From contig NZ_CP114039.1 in assembly GCF_026965535.1 (NCBI RefSeq), forward strand, positions 8,099,461 through 8,163,460: a stretch of DNA of 64,000 nucleotides. Reading direction: 5' to 3'. The notes under the pieces were generated by a model that was not told the origin of the DNA, did not search any database, and was given only the letters and a program-made list of their open reading frames with translations. Below, one piece after another: positions 1-30,432 of this stretch. The position numbers and the translations under genes are program-made. Origin of the DNA: Corallococcus sp. NCRR (GTDB lineage: Bacteria > Myxococcota > Myxococcia > Myxococcales > Myxococcaceae). How positions within the stretch are numbered: position 1 is the stretch's first letter; the number at the start of each line of letters is the position of its first letter.

Positions 1-667
1 AGCTCCTCCCGGTCCACGTCCCCGGGGAGCTCCTGGTCCGCCTCCATCTGGTCGATGATGTCCCGGATGGCCTTTTCGGTGCGGCGCCAGAGCTCCTCGT
101 CCCCGAGCCGGTCCATGTCCATGCGGCGCAGGTCCAGGTACTCGATGAGCCGGTCGTGGATCTCCTTCTGGAGCCGCGAGTAGCGCTCCAGCCGGGGGTC
201 CACCTTGCGCTTGTTCTTCGCCATGGCCGCGGCCATGGACGCGGGCATGCGGCTGGGAGCCGCGGGGGCGGGCGCGGGCTCCTCCTCCTCGTAGGGCTCC
301 TCCTCTTCGTAGGCCTCTTCCTCGTAGGCCTCCTCGCCCTGCTCCTCGTCGTAGGCCTCTTCCGCGGGCTCGTCTTCCAGCGGCTCGACGTTGAGGATGT
401 AGTCGCCGATGGAGACCTGGTCGGTGGGCTTGAGCACCATGGGACCGGCGATCTTCTTGCCGTTCACGAAGGTGCCGTTCGTGGACTTCATGTCCACGAT
501 GATGAAGCGCCCATCCTTTTCGACGATGCGGGAGTGGGTCTTGGAGACGTTCCCCTTGGCGAGCACGATGTCGTTGCCAGCAATCCGGCCGATCGTGATC
601 TCGTTCTTGGGGTACTCCCGCTGCTCCGAACCGCCGCCCTTCTCCGTCAGCGTGATGAGAAACATGG
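1..667 (-). CDS. FHA-domain protein continuous with the N-terminal region of a CpaF/TadA-family secretion ATPase (C-terminus beyond window start)
   Basis: Own translation of the reverse complement: MFLITLTEKGGGSEQREYPKNEITIGRIAGNDIVLAKGNVSKTHSRIVEKDGRFIIVDMKSTNGTFVNGKK..SIGDYILNV (canonical FHA), then an acidic E/Y/P-rich linker, then ..RLERYSRLQKEIHDRLIEYLDLRRMDMDRLGDEELWRRTEKAIRDIIDQMEADQELPGDVDREEL, which resembles CpaF N-terminal helices. Open to position 1. Absent from the ORF track because no stop is in the window. Confidence 0.6.
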
Positions 668-814: not shown

Positions 815-2263
815 TCAGTCGAAGATGTTGAAGTTCACCTCGGAGCGGGCCTGCTTGTAGCGGGTCTTCACGTCCTCGATGATGCTGCGGACCTTGTCCG
901 AGTCCGGATTCACGATGCGCGGGGTGACGAAGATCACCAGCTCGCGCTTGGTGGAGTCGAACGCGCGGTTCTTGAACAGCTCGCCCACGATGGGGATGTG
1001 ACCCAGGCCGGGCAGCTTCGCGACGGCCTTCTGCTCGTCGTGGCTGAACACGCCGGACAGCACGATCGTTTCTCCGTGGCGCACGGTGACGTTCGTCTTG
1101 ACCTTGCGGGTGCGGAAGCCCGGGATGGCGGACGAACCACCGAAGGACACGGACACGGAGGTGTCGATTTCGGAGGCCTCGGCCTCCACCTCGGTCTGGA
1201 TGTTGCCGTTGCGGTCCGCGGTGGGGCGGATGTTCAGGATGACGCCGTAGGGCTTGTACTCCACCGTGAACTGCGTGTTGGTGATGAGGGGGATGGGCAC
1301 CTCGCCGCCGGCGAGGAACTCCGCCTTCTCACCGCTGGCGCACACCAGCTTGGGCTGCGCCAGCAGGCGGCCGTAACCGTCGTTGGCCTGGAAGCCGATG
1401 CTCAGGTCGGAGCCGCCGATCGCGCCCAGCGTGAGGGTGGAGACGGCGTCGCCGGAGGGCAGCAGCGCCTTGTTCAGGTTCGCGGTGGCGGACAGCGTGC
1501 CGGTGATGTCCGTGGGGTACTTGATGCCGTAGCGGTCGCGGCTGTTGCGGCGGATTTCGACGAACTGGACCTCGGAGAGGATCATCCGCTTGATGCCGAC
1601 GACGAGCAGGTTCTCCACCTTCTCACCGATGGCCTTGGTGATGAGCTCCGCCTTCTGGAGGTCCTGCTGGCTCTCCACGGAGCCCTCCAGGAAGATGGTC
1701 GCGCCCACCACATTGGCCTGCACGTTCTTCAGGCCCGCCTTCTGGAAGGCCGCGTTCAGGTTCTGCGCGACGAGCTTCTTGGCGTTGGGGGCGATCTTCA
1801 CGAACGACTTCACGTTCGGGTACAGGCTCACCACCTGCTCGATGCGGTCCGCGTCCTGCGTGGTGTAGGCCTGACCGTCCAGGTAGATGCGGTCGCCCAC
1901 CATGCGCACGGACACGCCTTCAATCTCACCGAGCAGGCGCTTGATCTCGGAGATGACCTCGTTGGGGTCCTGCTTGCGGACCGTCACCAGGTAGCTGATG
2001 CGCTGACCGGAGGACTTCCAGACGAGCAGCGTCGTCTTGCCCTCGGCGTTACCGGTGACGAGCAGCTGGCCGGTGCCCAGCGTCTTCACCTCGGCGATGG
2101 ACGGATCACCCAGCGCGACGCGGCTGAGGCCGGGAATGGTGAGCACCTTCTGGGTGCCCACACCCAGGCTGACGGAGCTGCCCTCCTGGGCCTGGGCAGG
2201 GGCGCTGGCCACCACCGTGACGACGGCGCCGAGCGCCAGGGCTTGCGTGAAGCGAGTGAACAT
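815..2263 (-). CDS. cpaC: Tad/Flp pilus secretin (CpaC/RcpA family, type II/III secretion secretin domain)
   Basis: 482 aa. Signal peptide ALALGAVVTVVASAPAQA. C-terminal secretin motifs GETIVLSGV..LPGLGHIPIVGELFKN..ELVIFVTPRIV. N-terminal secretin_N/BON-like repeats. Confidence 0.85.
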   Translation of the reverse strand: MFTRFTQALALGAVVTVVASAPAQAQEGSSVSLGVGTQKVLTIPGLSRVALGDPSIAEVKTLGTGQLLVTGNAEGKTTLLVWKSSGQRISYLVTVRKQDPNEVISEIKRLLGEIEGVSVRMVGDRIYLDGQAYTTQDADRIEQVVSLYPNVKSFVKIAPNAKKLVAQNLNAAFQKAGLKNVQANVVGATIFLEGSVESQQDLQKAELITKAIGEKVENLLVVGIKRMILSEVQFVEIRRNSRDRYGIKYPTDITGTLSATANLNKALLPSGDAVSTLTLGAIGGSDLSIGFQANDGYGRLLAQPKLVCASGEKAEFLAGGEVPIPLITNTQFTVEYKPYGVILNIRPTADRNGNIQTEVEAEASEIDTSVSVSFGGSSAIPGFRTRKVKTNVTVRHGETIVLSGVFSHDEQKAVAKLPGLGHIPIVGELFKNRAFDSTKRELVIFVTPRIVNPDSDKVRSIIEDVKTRYKQARSEVNFNIFD

Positions 2264-2309: not shown

Positions 2310-2846
2310 CTATCCCAGATGTTGTTGCTGCCACCACATGGCCCAGAAAGTCCCGAGCGCGATGGAGACGCCGTAGGGGATGTGTCGCGCGGGCGAGGGC
2401 GAGGTTTCCTCGCGCATCCATTTCATCCGCACCGCCCAGCGACGGGCCACCGCCGCCAGCGTGTCCCAGACGGCCCCCTGCCACAGCAGCGTGACGATGG
2501 CCTGCAGCGCGCCCGTGAGCGAGATGAAGGCCGCCGCGGCGAGCACCGTGGGAAAGCCCAGCACGCAACCCACGCCCGCCATCAGCTTGACGTCACCCCA
2601 CCCCATGCGCCCGCGCAGCGCACCCGGCACCAGCAGCAGCGCGAGTCCCGCGCCCGCCAGAAGCCCGCTCACCACCCCCGACTCCAGCCCGCCCACCCCT
2701 TCGGACACGCCGCGCAGCCCGAGCCCCAGCACGATGAGGGGATAGGTCACGGCGTTCGGGATGAGCCGGCGCAGCACGTCGGTCACCACCGCAATCACCA
2801 GGGCCACTCCCAGAATCGTCCACGACGCGAGCTGAGCAGGTGTCAT
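2310..2846 (-). CDS. cpaA: A24-family prepilin peptidase (CpaA/TadV type)
   Basis: 178 aa polytopic membrane protein. GWGDVKLMAGVG motif and conserved Asp positions typical of Flp prepilin peptidases. Adjacent to the secretin. Confidence 0.8.
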   Translation of the reverse strand: MTPAQLASWTILGVALVIAVVTDVLRRLIPNAVTYPLIVLGLGLRGVSEGVGGLESGVVSGLLAGAGLALLLVPGALRGRMGWGDVKLMAGVGCVLGFPTVLAAAAFISLTGALQAIVTLLWQGAVWDTLAAVARRWAVRMKWMREETSPSPARHIPYGVSIALGTFWAMWWQQQHLG

Positions 2847-3879: not shown

Positions 3880-6126
3880 TTACTGGAACGCCCGGAGATA
3901 CGTGAGGTTGTCCAGGTTGTCGGTGATCGACTCCAGGGCCACCTGGAGCACGCCGTCCGCCGAGGGGTACGCGACGTAGGCGAGGCTGGAGCCCTCCACG
4001 TCCGTGGCCACCACGGAAGCAGGCAGGGTGTAGACGCCCAGGCTGCTCGACTGGCCGGTGTCCACGCCGAAGATGTAGCGGCGGAAGCGCGGCAGCAGCG
4101 TCACCAGGTAGCGGTCCCCCGCGTTGAGGCGGCTCCCCGCGCCGAGGGTCGGCGTCATCGTGAGCGTCAGCGGCGCGGGCACGTAGGTGGTGGGCGTCCT
4201 GGGCGGGTCCAGGCCCAGGTCGAAGCCGTCCGGGTGGTAGTAGTAGTCCAGGAAGGTGGAGACCGTGTACGCCTCGTTGACGTCCAGCCGCTGCAGGTAC
4301 GTGCCGCTGGTCTCCGCGCCCGCGTAGAGCACGAAGGGCTTCACGTTCGGGCCCGCGCGCACGGAGAACGACGGATAGGACGCGCAGGGCTCGGCCGCGG
4401 CGGCGACCGCGGGGTCGGACAGGTCCGGGTAGAGCCGCGTGAGGCCGTCGCCCTGGTCCTCCAGGCGCAGGATGGGGATGACCGCCGCGCAGGCGCCCGC
4501 GTTGTTCGCCAGGATGATGGAGTCGCCGGGAATCACGCCCCGGGCCGTCGCCAGGGCCGTCTCGATGAGGAGCGGAGGGTCCTCCTGGTTCAGGTCGCGG
4601 GAGAGGCCAACCAGCCCGGGCAGCACGCCCTGGAAGACGAAGCGGTACGTCCCGTTGGGCACCGAGCCGTTGCAGAGGAACGCCGTGGCGTTGGTCGCGT
4701 CCTGCACCTGGGGACAGCCGGGCTGGGTCACGGTGATGCCCTGGAACTGATCCGAGCGCAGCTGCTCGTTGCTGTCCAGCAGCTGCGCGGACACCGACGA
4801 GTTCAGCGGCTTGTTCGCGGAGTCGCGGTCCAGGTTGAACGGGCGCCGCTCGTCCGCGCGGAACAGGGTGATCTTCCCGTCGGACGACGGCATGATTCCC
4901 AGGAGCGGAATGGGGGTGATGTAGGGCACGCTGTCCGCCAGGATCTCACGGACCTCCAGGCCCGAGCGCAGCGTGAGGCCCGTGGGCAGGCCCGCGGACG
5001 TCCGCAGGGTCAGCATGGGCGCGCCGGTGATGTCGCGGGCGAGCACCGGCGCCGCGGACGGCGCATTCACCGGATCCGCCCCGTTGTCGAGCGCGATGAC
5101 GCCCTCGCAGTCGGACGAGTTGCACGTCAGCTCGTCCAGCACCACGAACACGAAGCGGCCCGCGGGCCAGGGCTCGATGCAGCTCGTCGTCCCGTCGGTC
5201 TGGGTCTTCACCACCGTGCCCGCCGGGCAGTTCCCATCGTCGAGCTTGGGCTTGGGCACGCTGTAGCTGGGGTGCGTGGCCACGAGCCGCGCCGGGATGT
5301 CCACCAGGTCCGCGTAGTTGGGCACCGCGTAGGGCGCCGGACGCGGCCGCTTGTACGGAATCTCCACGGAGGCCCCGTCCGCGACGACGCGCACGAGCCG
5401 GCTGGTGCCGGACACGTTGCGGATGGCGACCACCAGCGAGTCCACCACGTCCGCCCGCGCGGGCAGCGTGGTCATGGACATCACCGTGTCCGCGGGCTTG
5501 AGGCAGAAGACGGGCAGCGCGGGAGGCAGCGCGGCCGCGTCGAAGCCCTCCGGGCCGGGCAGGTCCTGGCGCATCACCACCCCGCCACCGAAGGGACCGC
5601 AGAGCTGCTCGGCGGCCTCCGGGCGCGTCTGGAGCGCGTAGTACAGGACGCTCGGCGCGCCCTCCGCCACCGGGGCGTGCGCGGTGAAGGCGGTGATGAG
5701 CTGGCCGGTCGCCAGGCGCGTCACCTCGTTGAGGCGCGCGCGGTCCGCGGCCACCACGGAGATGCCGCGGCCGCCGGAGCTGCGCGCGTAGATGTACGGG
5801 CCGGACACGTCATTGCCGTCGCCGTCGTAGCCCACGTCGCGGGTGAGCGAGTCCGGCCGCGCGATGACGGGGATGGCCAGGGGCTCCAGCGGGTTGGGCG
5901 CGGGGATGAACTCACGCGGCGTGCGCGTCAGGTCCAGCACGCGCAGCTCATCCCGGTCCTGCGAGGTGACGAAGACGAGCTGGTTGGAGAGCACCACGTC
6001 GTACGTGCCGGAAAGCCCGGCGGCGCCCGCGGTGGAGGTGGTGTCGGAGCAGGCGAGCGCGAGGCTCGCGCCGCTCAGCACCAGGGCAGCAAGAAAGCCG
6101 CGCTTCAAGGTCAGTTCTCCTGGCAC
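3880..6126 (-). CDS. Large lipoprotein, hypothetical (beta-propeller-like repeats)
   Basis: 748 aa. Lipobox LALACS after a signal peptide. Repeated VxxxxxxLxVxD / YVA-type segments. No recognisable catalytic motif. Confidence 0.55.
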   Translation of the reverse strand: MPGELTLKRGFLAALVLSGASLALACSDTTSTAGAAGLSGTYDVVLSNQLVFVTSQDRDELRVLDLTRTPREFIPAPNPLEPLAIPVIARPDSLTRDVGYDGDGNDVSGPYIYARSSGGRGISVVAADRARLNEVTRLATGQLITAFTAHAPVAEGAPSVLYYALQTRPEAAEQLCGPFGGGVVMRQDLPGPEGFDAAALPPALPVFCLKPADTVMSMTTLPARADVVDSLVVAIRNVSGTSRLVRVVADGASVEIPYKRPRPAPYAVPNYADLVDIPARLVATHPSYSVPKPKLDDGNCPAGTVVKTQTDGTTSCIEPWPAGRFVFVVLDELTCNSSDCEGVIALDNGADPVNAPSAAPVLARDITGAPMLTLRTSAGLPTGLTLRSGLEVREILADSVPYITPIPLLGIMPSSDGKITLFRADERRPFNLDRDSANKPLNSSVSAQLLDSNEQLRSDQFQGITVTQPGCPQVQDATNATAFLCNGSVPNGTYRFVFQGVLPGLVGLSRDLNQEDPPLLIETALATARGVIPGDSIILANNAGACAAVIPILRLEDQGDGLTRLYPDLSDPAVAAAAEPCASYPSFSVRAGPNVKPFVLYAGAETSGTYLQRLDVNEAYTVSTFLDYYYHPDGFDLGLDPPRTPTTYVPAPLTLTMTPTLGAGSRLNAGDRYLVTLLPRFRRYIFGVDTGQSSSLGVYTLPASVVATDVEGSSLAYVAYPSADGVLQVALESITDNLDNLTYLRAFQ

Positions 6127-7640
6127 ACGCTGGTGCCCTGGTTCGGATCACGCTGCTGCTGGATGCCCAGCCTGGCCACCAGCCGCGCGTCCTGGGGACG
6201 CGACAGGTCGGGGATGTCCACGATGGCCACCTGGCTGTCACCGAAGTTGGTCACGAACAGCCGCGCCGCGTTCGTCCCGGCGGGGTTGTCCACCGTCAGC
6301 CCGAAGGCCTGGGACGGGTTGCTGGTCTGGTTCTGGTTGTTGACGAGCGGCACCTGCGCCACGACCTGCCCGAGCGCCTCGTCGTAGAGGGACACCGCGC
6401 TGTCGCCGGTGCTCGTCACCGCGATGATGTGGGTGTCCGCGTTGGACGCGCCCGGCGTCCGCGAGATGATCTGCATGTCGCTCACGCCGTCGGGCATGGG
6501 CACCGCGGAGACCACGCGGAAGAAGGGCTGCGTGGAGGTGCCGCCCGGCACCGCGTCATATTCGAAGTCGAGCGTGAGCAGCGTGTCCGGGCCGCGCGCC
6601 AGCATGTACAGCCGCTCGCGCACGAAGTTCGGACGCACCGCCCGCTCCTCCGCCGTCACCGGACGGGGCACCACGCGCGCGGCGCGCGCCTCGCGGATGC
6701 GGTACTCCGCCTGCAGCGAGGGCTCCAGGATGGTGCCGGGGTCGTTCTTGTCCACCAGCCGCAGCACGAAGTTGCCGGCCACGGTGCCGCTGATGCCGGC
6801 CACGAAGTTGCGGCCCGTCACGTAGAGGAAGCCCGTGCCCACCGTCACCGAATCCGAGCCGCCGTAGAGGTAGCCCTCGGGAGACAGCGAGATGAAGCCC
6901 AGCGAGTCCCGCGTGGGGTTGTCCAGCTTCACCGTGGCCAGGTAGCTCTCGAAGTTGCTGCTGGACCTGGCGGGCGAGTCCGCCGCCTCCGAGTGCGTCA
7001 CGTACAGGTTGCCGCTCGCCTCATCCACCGTCACGCCGATAGGCGACGGAGCGCGGGGCAGGTCCGCGCGCCCCTCGTCGCTGAGGGACGACGGGATGTC
7101 CTCGGTGAGCGACAACGCGCCGGTGCGGCAGTCCATGCCGCCCTGCACGCAGGTGAGCACCGGAGCGCCGTTGGCCTCCAGGCTCACGTCCACCGCGTTC
7201 AGGTTGTTGCCCTCCGCGCGCGAGGGCACGAACAGGCGCGGCAGCCCCGTGGCCGGGTTCACCCACAGGCCCAATTCGCCCGCGAAGCTGCGGATCTGCA
7301 CGAGCGACTCGTCCGCGGACGCCAGGTCCTCGAAAGCGAGCGGAGCGTCCGGGAGCGCGCCGCCCAGGTGGGGCACCGTGACGGTCTGCCCGTCCACCTG
7401 CGTGCTCAGCGTGTCCAGGTTCAGCGCCACCACCGAACCGGAGTCGTAGCAGTTGTCGAAGTTGGCGTTCGCGACGAACAGGTAGCCATTGCTCGCCGAC
7501 GGGCCGCCCGCCGCTGGAGGGCGCCAGAAGGCCACCCCGCTGGGGTACACGAAGCGGGTGGACGGAGGCGGGTTCGGTTCGGATTCAATCGAACACGCCC
7601 CGAGGAGCAGCAGCGCGGGAGTCAGGAAGTGGAGGCGCAT
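6111..7640 (-). CDS. Lipoprotein, hypothetical (YVTN/YncE-like beta-propeller repeats)
   Basis: Start chosen at MRLHFLTPALLLLGACS (lipobox). The ORF extends upstream to 7778 without signal logic. Motifs YLFVANANFD..VVALNL, LYVTHSEA, RLFVTNFGDSQVAIVDI. 16 bp overlap with the downstream lipoprotein gene. Confidence 0.5.
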   Translation of the reverse strand: MRLHFLTPALLLLGACSIESEPNPPPSTRFVYPSGVAFWRPPAAGGPSASNGYLFVANANFDNCYDSGSVVALNLDTLSTQVDGQTVTVPHLGGALPDAPLAFEDLASADESLVQIRSFAGELGLWVNPATGLPRLFVPSRAEGNNLNAVDVSLEANGAPVLTCVQGGMDCRTGALSLTEDIPSSLSDEGRADLPRAPSPIGVTVDEASGNLYVTHSEAADSPARSSSNFESYLATVKLDNPTRDSLGFISLSPEGYLYGGSDSVTVGTGFLYVTGRNFVAGISGTVAGNFVLRLVDKNDPGTILEPSLQAEYRIREARAARVVPRPVTAEERAVRPNFVRERLYMLARGPDTLLTLDFEYDAVPGGTSTQPFFRVVSAVPMPDGVSDMQIISRTPGASNADTHIIAVTSTGDSAVSLYDEALGQVVAQVPLVNNQNQTSNPSQAFGLTVDNPAGTNAARLFVTNFGDSQVAIVDIPDLSRPQDARLVARLGIQQQRDPNQGTSVCQEN

Positions 7641-7808
7641 CAGAGGGGGGCGGAGTGTAGGAACGCGGCCCTGCCCCGGGCAACTGAATAGGGCGTCTGC
7701 TATTCCCGGTCGCCCTCTCGCCGACATCCGCCCCCATCCACGGGGCGTGCGCCGCTCCCCTGGTGGGGGAACGGGCACGCTCCGGGGCGGAGGAAGAGCG
7801 GCCAGGCG

Positions 7809-10988: not shown

Positions 10989-13258
10989 TCAGTCCGAGTA
11001 GTCCGGCAGGTCGGCCAGTCGAATCTGCAGCTTCGTCACCTCGCCGGGACGGATGGGAGCGGACAACAGCTTGCTCGTACCGCCGGGATCCTGCGGGTCC
11101 ACCACGCGCAGACGGTACGTCCCGATGGGCAGGGGGAACTTGTTCAACGGGGACGTGCCCAGTTGCGTGGCGCCGTCGAACACGGCCGCGTTCTTCGGCA
11201 CCGTGTAGAGCGTCAGCCAGCCCAGGCCCGCCTTCGCAGCGCCCTTGGAGGTGCTCGTGTCGAGCACCTCCGGGTTCTCCTCCTGAGAGACGGTGGTGAC
11301 GGGCTCCGGGGACCGCTCCGTGGGCGCGGGCTTCGCGGGGCGCGGCTCCGCCTTCGCCACCACGGGCGCGGGCGCGTCCGTCGTGGCGGCCGGCTTCGTC
11401 TTGCGTCCCCCCTTGGCAGCGGGGGCCTGCTTCGTGTCGATGGGCGGCGCGACCACCACCGGTTCGGGCGGGGGCGTCGGATCAACCTGCGCGGGCTCGG
11501 GGGTGGTCTTCTGGACGAAACCCGGCGGAGGACCGGAGGGCTTCGGCGGCCACTGTCCGTTCGCGGCGGGGTCCACCGGAGGGGGCGGATCCAGCTCCGC
11601 CTTCACCCACTGCTTCGCGGAGTCGAACGCCGGCATGAACACGCGGCGCACGGGTTCGAGCGTCGCCAGGTACGCCACGCCGCCCAGGAGGAAGAGCAGG
11701 AACAACCGCATGCCCCAGCCGGAGCCCTCGCGCACGGGCGGGGCCACGGGGGGCGCTTCTTCAACGGACGCCTCTTGCTCCACCTGCCGCGAGGACCGCG
11801 CGGTGCCGCGCACCGGGCGGGCCTTGAAGCGCTGGGTCTGGAGCTCGCTGGGCGGATCCATCAGCCCGTCGGACGGGGCTGCGTCGCGGGCTTCGGCGGG
11901 CTCCGGCCGAGCGCTGGGACGGGCCCGCGAGGGCCGCACGGCGTCCGCGGGAGGACGAACGACCCGGGGAACTGGCGTCCCATCCGCCCCCGCGGGCCGC
12001 TGCGCTCGCGGCGTCACGGCGGGCGTGTTGACGCGAGAGGCGCGGGCCTCCACGGCCTCATTGGCGGGACGCGGGGTCGCGCGGGGCGCGGGCGTCGCGG
12101 ACTCCGTGGCGGTGCGGCGGACGGGCGTGGGCTTGAAGGACGCCGCGACGTCCGGGGACGGGGCCTCCGCGTGCGGCGACTTCACCTGCGCGGTGGCCGC
12201 CGAGGCGGCCTGCTCACTGCCCTCCTCCACCTGGAGCGCGCCGGCGGCCTCGCTGACGCGGGCGTCCTCGGCGCGGCTGGCCAGCTCCAGGAGCGTGCGC
12301 GTCTTCTGGCGCTTCTCCTCGAAGAGCTCGCCCATGACGGCGGTCATCTGGTCTTCGTCGAACAGCTCGGAGCCCAGCGTGGCCTCGATGGCGCGCGCCA
12401 TCTCCCGGCAGGTGCCGAAGCGCTGGGTGGTATCGCGCGACAGCGCCTTGAGCACCACCGCTTCCAGGGCCTCCGGCACGGCCGCGTTGAGCGAGCGCGG
12501 CGCGGGGATGTCCCCGTCCACGATTTGCATCATCACGGCGGCCTCGCCGGGCGCGTTGAACAGGCGCTGTCCGGCGAGCAGCTCATGGAGCATCACGCCG
12601 GTGGAGAACTGGTCGCTGCGGCCATCCAGGTCCTTGTTGCGCACCTGCTCCGGGGACATGTACCCGCTGGTCCCCTTCACGGTGCCCACCTGCGTGCGGC
12701 CCAGCTTGCCGCGCGCCTTGGCGATGCCGAAGTCGATCACCTTCACGACGCCGTCGTAGGTGAGCATCACGTTCTTCGGGGACACGTCGCGGTGCACCAC
12801 CGCCACGGGGCGGCCGGACGGGTCCATGAAGTGGTGGGCGTAGTGCAGGCCCAGGCACGTGTCGCGGATGACACGCGCGCTGAAGCCCAGCGGCAGCGCG
12901 TACTTGCGCCGCTCCGCCATCTTCACCACCTGCTCCAGGTTCTGGCCGGGCAGGAACTCCATGGCGAGGTACAGCTCGCCGTCCTCCTCCCCCAGGTCGA
13001 ACACCTGTCCGATGTTCGCGTGCGAGAAGGCCGCGGTGATGCGCGCCTCGTCGAGGAACATCTTGACGAACTGGTCGTCCTTCTTGATGTCGGGGAGGAT
13101 CTGCTTCACCGCCACGAACTTGCGGAAGCCACCGGGGCCGGAGGTGTACGCGAGGAACAGCTCCGCCATCCCGCCCATCGAGAGTCGGGTGAGGATCTCG
13201 TACTTTCCAATGCGCCGCCCCCGGTCGGGATCGTCTCCGGCGACTCCCTGCGTACTCA
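10989..13258 (-). CDS. Membrane Ser/Thr protein kinase with Pro-rich linker and C-terminal PEGA domain
   Basis: Start at MSTQGVAGDDPDRGRRIGKYEIL. The ORF-track start at 13499 is an upstream in-frame extension. Hanks kinase motifs (VAVK, HRDVSPKNVML, DFGIAK, SGYMSPEQ). TM LFLLFLLGGVAYLA. PEGA-like C-terminus LTLYTVPKNAAVFDG..GTYRLRV. Confidence 0.8.
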
Positions 13259-13354
13259 TGGCGGAGGCGGATGTTACCCGCCCAACCCTCCCAGGTCGAT
13301 GATCGTCTTTCCAGACCGGCCGCTCCCCCGAGCCAGGAGCCCGGAGAAAGCGGC

Positions 13355-14143
13355 TTAGGCGCCGAAACGCCGGCGCCGCACGTCGAGCATCCAGGCCTCG
13401 AGCGCGGCCACGGCCGCCGGTTGTGGCTCCAGAGGCAACACGGAGGCCGCGTCCGCCGCGTCGAGCACCGCGAAGGCGCGCGTCACCTCCCCCTGCCACT
13501 GCGCGCTGAGCGCGTCGGTCAGCTCGATGCGCTCACCGCTCCGCTTGCGCTCCACCAGCGCTCGGGCTTCGCCAAAGCCATACGGCTCCAGCAGGACGGT
13601 GACGTCCGTCTCCACCTCGCCCGTGCGCAGCGCGTGCGTTCCAGTGAGCGTCGTGCGCAGCACGTACAGCAACTTCTTCACGGAGCGGAATCCGCTCTTC
13701 TCCCACTCGCGGAGCTGTCCCTGCGCGAAGCCGCGATAGTGCCGGTGGATGCGCCGCGACAGCACGGTCCGCACCCGCGGACGCAGCGCCTCCAGATCCG
13801 GCAGGGCCCGCACGGTGATGGCCCCCAGCACGCGCTCGATGTAGTTGCCGTTGCCCTGGAGGATGCCCAGCAGCACGGGCTGCAGCTCGTTGGACGAGTA
13901 GTCCACCTCCACGCCCTCCAGCACCTCCAGCCGCTCCGCCGGCACGTGCCGGGGCTGGAGGCCCAGGAGCGCGGCGGTGGGCGCGATGTGGATGGCCTTC
14001 AGGTCCAGGTCGCTGTCATGCGACGGGAAACCGTACGCATGCGCGCCCGACAGCGAGATGACCAGGTGCTCGCGCAGGAGGGACTCCGCGTCCAGCACGC
14101 GGTCCGCCATGCGCTCCTGATGCTCCGTCACCCTGCCCTTCAT
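13355..14143 (-). CDS. Pol-beta superfamily nucleotidyltransferase (COG3541/RlaP-like)
   Basis: 262 aa. hG[GS]..DhDh motif LSGAHAYGFPSHDSDLDLK. Strong SD (GGAAGGAGGGA) before the ATG. The ATG overlaps the upstream gene stop (ATGA). Confidence 0.6.
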   Translation of the reverse strand: MKGRVTEHQERMADRVLDAESLLREHLVISLSGAHAYGFPSHDSDLDLKAIHIAPTAALLGLQPRHVPAERLEVLEGVEVDYSSNELQPVLLGILQGNGNYIERVLGAITVRALPDLEALRPRVRTVLSRRIHRHYRGFAQGQLREWEKSGFRSVKKLLYVLRTTLTGTHALRTGEVETDVTVLLEPYGFGEARALVERKRSGERIELTDALSAQWQGEVTRAFAVLDAADAASVLPLEPQPAAVAALEAWMLDVRRRRFGA

Positions 14144-15429
14144 TCCGTCCCTCCTTCCAGCGCCGGGGCTTCCGGCGCGTCACGGCCCAGCGGTCCGGGC
14201 GTCTTCAAGACCCAGCGCCGCGCTACCTCGTCTCCCACGCGACGCAACAGCCGGTCCGCGCGGGCGTAGTCCGGATGCTCCGGCAGCCGGCTCTCACGGT
14301 GCGCGGCCTCCAGCGCCGGAGCCATCGCCTCGGCGTCGCGCAGCACGTCCTCCAGGGGCACCTGTCCCCCCTTGATGTCGAGCAGCCGCGACTTCAACGC
14401 CCCCGTCGCCTCGAAGGTGGGCACGCCGTCGCGCAGCCAGCCCGTGGCCAGCGCCACCAGCCTCAGCAGGTTGTAGGCGTTCTTCGGCCGCAGCTCGCGA
14501 GCGGACGGAGGACGCTGGCCGCCGCCGCGCGCGTATGCCGTGAGCGCCGCGAAGTCGTTGGACGTGAGCAGCCCCTGGTCCCAGAGCGAGCGGTAGAGCT
14601 GCTTGACGTACGTCTTCGCCGCGAGCACCGCGTCTTCGGGCGTGGGCGCGGCGCGGGGGCTCATGGCGGCCAGGCGACGGGCCACCTCGTCCAGGTCCGG
14701 CGTGGGCTCCTCGCACAGCCATGCGAGGAGCAGGTCGCGGTGCTCGGCCAGCCGCTGGCTGCGGGTGAGCTTGTCGAGTTGGCTCATGGCGTAGCGCCCG
14801 AAGCTGCCGAAGATGGCCTTGGAGACGAACGCCTCGCGCGCCTCCAGCACCCACGTGCCCAGCTCGTCCACCGCCGTCGCGCCGGGGACGAAGAGGGTCT
14901 CCAGCGTGTTCGGGTCCGCGCGCAGCGCCTGCTCCACCGTCTTGCGGACCTCCCAGTACGTGGTGCTGCCATCCGCGCTCACCAGGTCCTGCGGCGGCTG
15001 GCCCAGCCCCAGCGTCCACGGGAGCGGCAACGCGAACACCCCGCGCACGTCCACGTCGGAGCGCTCATCCGCGAGCCCCCAGGCGTGACTGCCCACGCGC
15101 GTCTCCAGCACCACGCACGGCCGCAGCGCGCCCCAGGCCGCCTCGCGCCGCTGGGCGAACTGCACCTGTCCCGCGCGCCGGGGCACCAGCTCATCGCGCG
15201 CGAACCACACCTCACCCACGCCGACGATCTGCACGTCGAAGCCGCCGTCATGCGCGCGCACCACGCGGCCCACCACGCCCTGGGGGATGCGGCGTCCCCC
15301 GGACGCCACGCGCTCCACGCGGGTGGTGACCTCGGTGCCGTGCGGCAGGGGCACCGACAGCCGGTCAATCTGCTCCAGTCCCCGGACGCGCGCCGGAGCG
15401 GAGGAAGAAGTCTCGCGGGTGTCACTCAT
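14140..15429 (-). CDS. Pol-beta superfamily nucleotidyltransferase, paralog with long C-terminal extension
   Basis: Start at MSDTRET (SD AGGGGGA 5 nt upstream). Motif VGSHAWGLADERSDVDVRGV parallels the downstream paralog. About 170 aa C-terminal helical extension. Confidence 0.6.
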   Translation of the reverse strand: MSDTRETSSSAPARVRGLEQIDRLSVPLPHGTEVTTRVERVASGGRRIPQGVVGRVVRAHDGGFDVQIVGVGEVWFARDELVPRRAGQVQFAQRREAAWGALRPCVVLETRVGSHAWGLADERSDVDVRGVFALPLPWTLGLGQPPQDLVSADGSTTYWEVRKTVEQALRADPNTLETLFVPGATAVDELGTWVLEAREAFVSKAIFGSFGRYAMSQLDKLTRSQRLAEHRDLLLAWLCEEPTPDLDEVARRLAAMSPRAAPTPEDAVLAAKTYVKQLYRSLWDQGLLTSNDFAALTAYARGGGQRPPSARELRPKNAYNLLRLVALATGWLRDGVPTFEATGALKSRLLDIKGGQVPLEDVLRDAEAMAPALEAAHRESRLPEHPDYARADRLLRRVGDEVARRWVLKTPGPLGRDAPEAPALEGGTE

Positions 15430-15507
15430 CGGTTCCCCCTGGATGGGATGGTGGGCCACGCAGGACGCAGCCAAGCACACGAGCCTGACCCGGCACGGCG
15501 CTTCCCG

Positions 15508-21673: not shown

Positions 21674-25885
<4,212 letters not shown>

Positions 25886-26024
25886 GTTGCCTCCGAAAAC
25901 TTATGAGCGCCTCAGGCGCCAAACGTTTCGGGCCCCCGCCCTGCGCCCGGCCAGCCGCTCCCTCCACGAGGGAGCAGCCAGCCGGTCAGGCGGGCGCACC
26001 GGCTTCTTTGAAAAGGCCTAGGCC

Positions 26025-30252
<4,228 letters not shown>

Positions 30253-30432
30253 CGGTCTCCGGGGACGGCTGCTCGGGCGGGGCAAACTTCAGTAACGCGC
30301 GGCGGCGCCGGGAAATTTGGCAAATGTCAAATGGGCAAAGCCGGCGCCCCAGCAAAGGGAGCGCCGGCCTGCTCATCCGATCAGGCGGCTACCCGGGATT
30401 TCCCGGAAGAACAGGGTAGCCCCTGTACAGAA

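Follow-up and report, generated by a model that had tools for sequence, protein, structure and literature searches.

The 5' part of a Corallococcus ortholog of Myxococcus xanthus kilF and its predicted FHA-CpaF architecture

KilF and related secretion motors

The Kil system is a myxobacterial Tad-like (type IVc) pilus machine that is assembled at prey contact and is required for contact-dependent killing, with KilF as its single motor (Seef et al. 2021, eLife, PMC8460266). In M. xanthus, KilF was described as "fused to an N-terminal FHA domain", NG-KilF was observed to be diffuse in the cytoplasm and to cluster at prey contact within minutes, before lysis, and a ΔkilF strain was predation-null (PMC8460266). 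Supplementary file 1 of the same study covers MXAN_3102-3108, in which 3105 is KilA, 3106 is KilC, 3107 is KilF (listed as "FHA domain; P-loop NTPase") and 3108 is KilD. More recently, polymerisation of the KilP pilus was found to be abolished in ΔkilF, and a needle-less T3SS* was found to be recruited by the Kil system at the same site (Nat Commun 2025, PMC12075869).

A survey of 292 CpaF orthologs sorted these motors into three architectures, with class III, which is found mostly in betaproteobacteria, having the order FHA-IDR-3HB-NTD-CAD (Yen et al. 2025, Nat Commun, PMC12019362). The same study named K287, T288, E312, R347, E357, D215, R217 and R223 as catalytic in CpaF. For the class III CpaF of Achromobacter xylosoxidans (E3HIW0), which has the same architecture as the protein described here, the FHA domain is described as binding phospho-threonine peptides while being tethered through the IDR (PMC12019362). 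The protein described here differs from these mostly betaproteobacterial motors in belonging to the Myxococcota Kil clade.

Canonical CpaF/TadA motors and KilF are both single bifunctional Tad motors, and the 3HB-NTD-ATPase core and its catalytic residues are common to KilF orthologs, Caulobacter crescentus CpaF (class II; 9e24, 8rkd) and A. actinomycetemcomitans TadA (class I). Unlike KilF, however, the canonical motors carry no FHA domain, and whereas they are localised at the pole by TadZ/CpaE, the Kil machine lacks TadZ and is put together where prey is contacted (PMC8460266). A likeness of another kind is offered by the Fha1/TagH-PpkA-PppA threonine-phosphorylation pathway of the P. aeruginosa H1-T6SS, where assembly of a killing machine is switched on through an FHA protein and a Ser/Thr kinase that is triggered by contact or at the envelope. 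That machine is a T6SS, and its FHA protein is a separate scaffold instead of being fused to the motor as in KilF.

A kilF ortholog at the edge of the window

The DNA analysed here, referred to as the window, is a stretch of 64,000 nucleotides from Corallococcus sp. NCRR. At its left edge lies a minus-strand open reading frame that runs from an ATG at 665-663 off the window edge at position 1, giving 221 stop-free codons (translation of 665..3) and a peptide that opens with MFLITLTEKGGGSEQREYPKNEITIGRIAGNDIVLAKGNVSKTHSRIVEKDGRFIIVDMKSTNGTFVNGKK. The GC3 of this frame is 0.93, matching the other real genes in the window (69% GC). The portion inside the window is the 5' 38% of the gene, and the remainder lies beyond the window edge. 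A second possible start is an in-frame TTG at 683-681, 18 nt upstream of the ATG, with an AGGAGGG motif directly upstream of the TTG and ~20 nt from the ATG; M. xanthus KilF is found in databases as both a 595-aa and a 601-aa version.

Table 1. Features of kilF, of kil cluster 1 and of the adjoining kinase gene in the window (aa numbers in the kilF rows refer to the translated fragment).
Feature	Position in window	Strand	Remarks
5' part of kilF (MXAN_3107 ortholog)	1..665	-	codons 1-221 of ~584 expected; stop-free translation, 77% aa identity to M. xanthus DK1622 KilF
FHA domain, aa 1-95	381..665	-	Pfam core aa 23-87 = window 405-599; predicted pThr-contact residues R27, S41, H44, N63
Acidic, Tyr-containing disordered linker, aa 96-141	243..380	-	pLDDT <50 over aa 97-141
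Helical N-terminal region of CpaF-type ATPase, aa 142-221	3..242	-	corresponds to three-helix bundle (3HB) preceding NTD
kilC, short Tad-type secretin (CpaC/RcpA-like)	815..2263	-	directly upstream of kilF, co-oriented; 87% aa identity to M. xanthus
kilA, prepilin peptidase (CpaA/TadV-like, Peptidase_A24)	2310..2846	-	PF01478 E=7e-16; 72% identity to M. xanthus
MXAN_3104 ortholog, 285 aa	2959..3816	-	C-terminal FHA aa 213-272, E=1.2e-19; 71% identity, collinear with M. xanthus
MXAN_3103 ortholog, predicted lipoprotein	3880..6126	-	lipobox LALAC near N-terminus; 41% identity, collinear with M. xanthus
MXAN_3102 ortholog, predicted lipoprotein	6111..7778	-	lipobox LLLGAC; 46% identity to M. xanthus over aa 47-554
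Receptor-type Ser/Thr kinase	10989-13499	-	Pkinase E=7e-35; directly upstream of glyQ-glyS-kil cluster 1

The genes upstream of this fragment identify it (Table 1). Parts of a Tad system are encoded beside it on the same strand, namely a secretin with a Tad-type pilus N-terminal domain and an A24 prepilin peptidase, and glyS and glyQ lie on the same strand upstream of the MXAN_3102 ortholog. The eight genes of the window that run from glyQ to kilF (glyQ-glyS-3102-3103-3104-kilA-kilC-kilF) are all collinear with M. xanthus DK1622 (CP000113.1, 3631054-3652841), with 41-93% amino acid identity. From this collinearity with MXAN_3102-3108 it follows that the window gene is the ortholog of kilF (MXAN_3107). 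The 595-aa KilF of M. xanthus DK1622 is 77% identical to the window fragment and 89% identical to a full-length Corallococcus ortholog, and the two share the N-terminal FHA domain, the acidic linker and the CpaF-type ATPase as well as a cluster of glyQS, two lipoproteins, an FHA protein, kilA, kilC and kilF. They differ in the linker, which in the window protein is 10-13 residues shorter and devoid of Thr; no functional difference is visible from sequence. Judged on gene order and similarity together, positions 1-665 almost certainly belong to kilF, with the predicted order FHA, acidic disordered linker, 3HB, NTD and ATPase.

Several details of the cluster accompany this assignment. The secretin gene kilC matches the Pfam domains T2SS-T3SS_pil_N, BON and Secretin (E=5e-42); its product is short (482 aa) and consists of these pilus N-terminal, BON and secretin domains only, which fits a published remark that it has no N0 domain. 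The MXAN_3104 ortholog has a conserved N-terminal region of ~55 aa without a Pfam match, followed by a long middle that is first Ala/Pro-rich and then acidic. No Pfam family matched the MXAN_3102 or MXAN_3103 orthologs of the window, and the start of the former is probably downstream of the longest-ORF start.

In order to follow the gene beyond the window edge, related loci were used. When the 221-aa fragment served as the protein query, nearly all matches were short metagenomic pieces at <=65% identity, and none was a full-length relative. The architecture was settled by a scan of one genome per species, which yielded 15 loci that encode close relatives, and by a search with a full-length ortholog. 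The top matches over the visible 221 aa were Corallococcus carmarthensis (99%), C. coralloides KYC2213 (98%) and C. aberystwythensis (97%), all at the amino acid level, and DNA identity to the Corallococcus relatives is ~95% over the shared region, which places the window in this genus. The Corallococcus orthologs, which are 94-99% identical to the visible 221 aa, are 583-589 aa long. In 13 of the related loci the gene is complete and forms an uninterrupted ORF of 583-600 aa, with no stop or frameshift and with all four ATPase motifs. The first-pass annotation had read the fragment as the start of an FHA-ATPase fusion and proposed looking for the Walker A/B, Asp and His boxes downstream; these boxes are present in all 13 complete related genes, and the fusion to a CpaF ATPase in one frame recurs in 13/13 complete related loci, with the ATPase half, which lies outside the window, described from these orthologs and not from the window genome.

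We therefore weighed a truncated gene or pseudogene, in which the window genome would encode just an FHA-linker-helix stub. The window does stop at codon 221, and a kilD frameshift in C. coralloides KYC2213 shows that lesions occur in the cluster, but 13/13 complete related loci have a single unbroken frame of 583-600 aa in which no ATPase motif is missing, and the fragment itself displays coding constraint (GC3 of 0.93, and 94-99% amino acid identity at ~95% DNA identity to Corallococcus orthologs), so that a stub is extremely unlikely. We infer from these comparisons that the window genome carries an intact full-length kilF, with its ATPase domain beyond the window edge.

In M. xanthus CP000113.1, kilF is followed by the gene for a 743-aa double-FHA/TPR protein and then by polA, and in related Corallococcus loci it is followed by kilD and then polA. 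In the related loci, three proteins of the kil cluster carry four FHA domains between them (one each in the MXAN_3104 ortholog and KilF, and two in KilD). In C. coralloides KYC2213, kilD is frameshifted (locus L002:10200-10290) into ORFs of 176 aa and 569 aa, and in 12 other Corallococcus/Myxococcaceae loci it is one ORF of ~740 aa. The frameshift reflects either a lesion confined to this strain or a mistake in its assembly. The reading of the 176-aa and 569-aa FHA ORFs as a truly split KilD was rejected, as the frameshift occurs in a single strain and the gene is intact in the 12 other loci.

Domain organisation from FHA to ATPase

The first-pass annotation had described a canonical FHA domain, an acidic linker and helices of the CpaF/TadA type in a single frame, and each of these elements was recovered. 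Both of the motifs that it quoted are present in the translation, GRIAGNDIVL at aa 26-35 and STNGTFVNG at aa 61-69. The FHA family (PF00498) matches aa 23-87 over its entire profile (1-67/67) with E=1.2e-17 and 64.5 bits against a cut-off of 20.7, and because of this score the resemblance is not a chance one; the FHA feature in the kilF fragment is real, far beyond chance. The linker, with its 21 D/E residues, and the predicted helices follow in the same frame.

A structure prediction had also been suggested in the first-pass annotation, and the AlphaFold2 model, built with a 27-sequence alignment, shows an FHA beta-sandwich, a disordered linker and helices. The sandwich spans aa 1-95 at a pLDDT of 75-84, with nine strands within aa 2-95. 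In a Foldseek search against the PDB, the top 50 matches were all FHA domains (probability 1.00, rmsd 2.0-2.5 Å), the closest being GarA, EmbR, OdhI, Ki67 and Bdellovibrio DgcB, with TMt values of 0.7-0.82. The helices were predicted at residues 142-150, 157-177 and 189-209. This region corresponds to C. crescentus CpaF ~39-139 (IDR and 3HB), inside a full-length ortholog match of E=1.9e-127, and the end of the 3HB runs off the window. The region is strongly conserved, and eight of its residues are invariant in 27 homologs (I174, D178, L179, R180, R181, D183, E191 and L192).

The C-terminal half was characterised in the full-length orthologs (13 complete genes for the motif count, plus one truncated at a contig end). 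These carry a Walker A motif (GGTGSGKT), an Asp box (EDAAEL), a Walker B motif (RIVVGE) and a His box (TGHDGSLTTLHAN, pattern TGHDGS..T.HAN), and a full-length ortholog matches T2SSE (PF00437) in Pfam with E=1e-65. Over residues 127-573, the full-length ortholog aligns with cryo-EM chains of Caulobacter CpaF (9e24 and 8rkd) at E=1e-127. In the alignment to PDB 9e24, the equivalents of CpaF K287/T288/E312/R347/E357/D215/R217/R223 are conserved in the ortholog, arginine fingers included.

With FHA-IDR-3HB in the window and NTD plus CAD in the orthologs, the domain order is that of a class III CpaF. In a search of representative proteins (50%-identity clusters) with the KilF fragment, 41,054 were matched at E<=1e-3, mostly generic FHA proteins. 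The best 150 were screened for an ATPase domain, and 81 of these 150 also contain a T2SSE-like ATPase. Several of the FHA-ATPase representatives are annotated as CpaF/TadA and come from Polyangia, "Deltaproteobacteria" and Pseudomonadota MAGs. Judged from these protein sequences, the FHA-ATPase fusion is common. The earlier statement that such an arrangement is not standard for Tad systems thus stands in comparison with textbook TadA/CpaF and falls in the wider comparison, as the fusion has been published for KilF (PMC8460266) and is a named class, class III (PMC12019362). The window gene is an ordinary Corallococcus ortholog of M. xanthus kilF, and its architecture is already known. Accordingly, its discovery value is small, since the gene, the FHA fusion, the cluster and the role in predation had all been described in the sister genus, and the domain order falls into a CpaF class that already has a name. 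Its residual value lies in the question of how prey contact is transduced into local Kil assembly, for which the KilF FHA domain is a mutable handle.

Candidate roles of the FHA domain and its neighbours

In the KilF FHA domain, G26-R27, S41-K-T-H44 and T62-N63-G64 are all in place, and none of G26, R27, S41, H44, S61, T62, N63 and G64 varies among 27 homologs, the most distant of which are ~42% identical. M. tuberculosis EmbR 308-374 aligns without gaps to KilF 23-89, placing R312/S326/N348 opposite R27/S41/N63. We take these three EmbR residues to have pThr-contact roles. The alignment and the conservation suggest that the KilF FHA domain is a predicted pThr binder with intact contact residues.

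On this basis, a contact-triggered Ser/Thr kinase would phosphorylate a Thr of a partner, which could be another Kil protein or the platform; the tethered FHA domain would then dock the soluble KilF ATPase hexamer onto the Thr-phosphorylated partner, and the motor would be recruited or activated solely at the point of contact with prey. Docking of the FHA domain at the contact site would explain the switch of NG-KilF from diffuse to focal. A recruitment idea of the same kind, by analogy with P. aeruginosa T6SS PpkA-Fha1, has been put forward by the Kil authors (PMC8460266) and in a 2025 review, and the papers found term the Kil-related FHA proteins only "promising candidates". Among the papers found, the literature search identified no test of the KilF FHA domain, no named Kil kinase and no binding partner. 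We give pThr-dependent recruitment of the KilF motor roughly an even chance. Taken as a whole, kilF identity and a class III CpaF build, with recruitment as the proposed role, are very probably the best explanation of the locus.

Some FHA folds of secretion systems work independently of phosphate, and the same domain could instead be a phospho-independent scaffold, like the FHA-like cytoplasmic domains of T3SS YscD/PrgH, that makes protein contacts or packs as a ring round the ATPase hexamer without any kinase. The fragment also matches the Pfam family Yop-YscD_cpl, the cytoplasmic domain of a T3SS inner-membrane component, above cut-off (E=6.6e-10, 39.6 bits, cut-off 33.2), the Kil system shares its site of action with a needle-less T3SS* that it recruits (PMC12075869), and the papers found name no phospho-partner, all of which would fit a scaffold. 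The YscD score, however, is far below that of the FHA family, the nearest structures are the bona fide pThr binders GarA, EmbR, OdhI, Ki67 and DgcB, and the phosphate-contact residues (G-R, S-x-x-H, T-N-G) are invariant in the 27 homologs and fall ungapped on EmbR R312/S326/N348. With these points against it, a scaffold role seems unlikely, and pThr-dependent recruitment is retained as the preferred reading.

The linker bears on a further alternative. In KilF of the window it is ~45 aa long, with 21 D/E, 4 Tyr and 0 Thr. Across 119 orthologs it measures 41-72 aa and is ~35% D/E, the rest of the sequence being variable, and a Thr-free linker like that of the window protein is found in 17 of the 119. 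About four Tyr in an E-E-x-Y-E-E context are kept in these linkers (minimum 2) despite the drift in length and sequence, and the Glu-Glu-x-Tyr repeats of the tether may be a second regulatory or docking element. In composition, the KilF linker resembles poly(Glu,Tyr).

An FHA domain on such a tether could also act within the molecule or the hexamer as an autoinhibitor, binding a phosphorylated residue of KilF itself or sitting on the 3HB and keeping the motor off until a signal arrives. Self-binding FHA switches are among the best structural matches (DgcB with its phosphorylated N-terminal tail, GarA and OdhI), and a shorter N-terminal IDR tends to raise the ATPase activity of Caulobacter CpaF (PMC12019362), which suggests that N-terminal appendages can damp the motor. 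Linker Thr is absent here and in 17/119 orthologs, however, so that a pThr site in the tether is not conserved, and the change of NG-KilF from diffuse to focal on contact is more directly explained by recruitment. We consider autoinhibition improbable as the role of this domain. Its particular form with a cis-autoinhibitory pThr site in the KilF linker is not supported, the window linker having no Thr.

Recruitment through phosphothreonine would call for a kinase, and a receptor-type Ser/Thr kinase gene adjoins the cluster in the window. Its product has one predicted TM segment (~aa 596-617), a Pro-rich extracytoplasmic spacer and a PEGA-like C-terminal domain, and its start is likely M81, giving ~756 aa. 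A Myxococcus genome and an Archangium MAG share the order kinase-glyQ-glyS-kil, so that the kinase lies beside the cluster in three genera, and the DNA upstream of the kinase differs in the Myxococcus genome. The kinase could be the Kil contact sensor, phosphorylating a Kil component that is then bound by the KilF FHA domain, but we regard this specific assignment as a long shot. The adjacency may reflect general synteny only, given that myxobacteria have many such kinases and that the region is broadly syntenic. Neither a role for this kinase as Kil contact sensor nor one for the Glu-Glu-x-Tyr repeats was described in the searchable literature. This conserved receptor-type kinase beside the kil cluster is a cheap candidate, and it may be the cognate kinase of the cluster's many FHA proteins.

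Beyond the Ser/Thr kinase, at window positions 13355-15480 (minus strand), two adjacent paralogs of the RlaP-family nucleotidyltransferases (PF10127) separate it from a PfkB sugar kinase. PfkB and the Ser/Thr kinase are direct neighbours in the Archangium locus, and because of this the RlaP pair looks like a Corallococcus insertion. Further along, at 21674-30326 (minus strand), two very long ORFs (1403 and 1432 aa) with small ORFs after them resemble rpoC/rpoB and genes for ribosomal proteins, and the Archangium locus has rpoC in the equivalent position.
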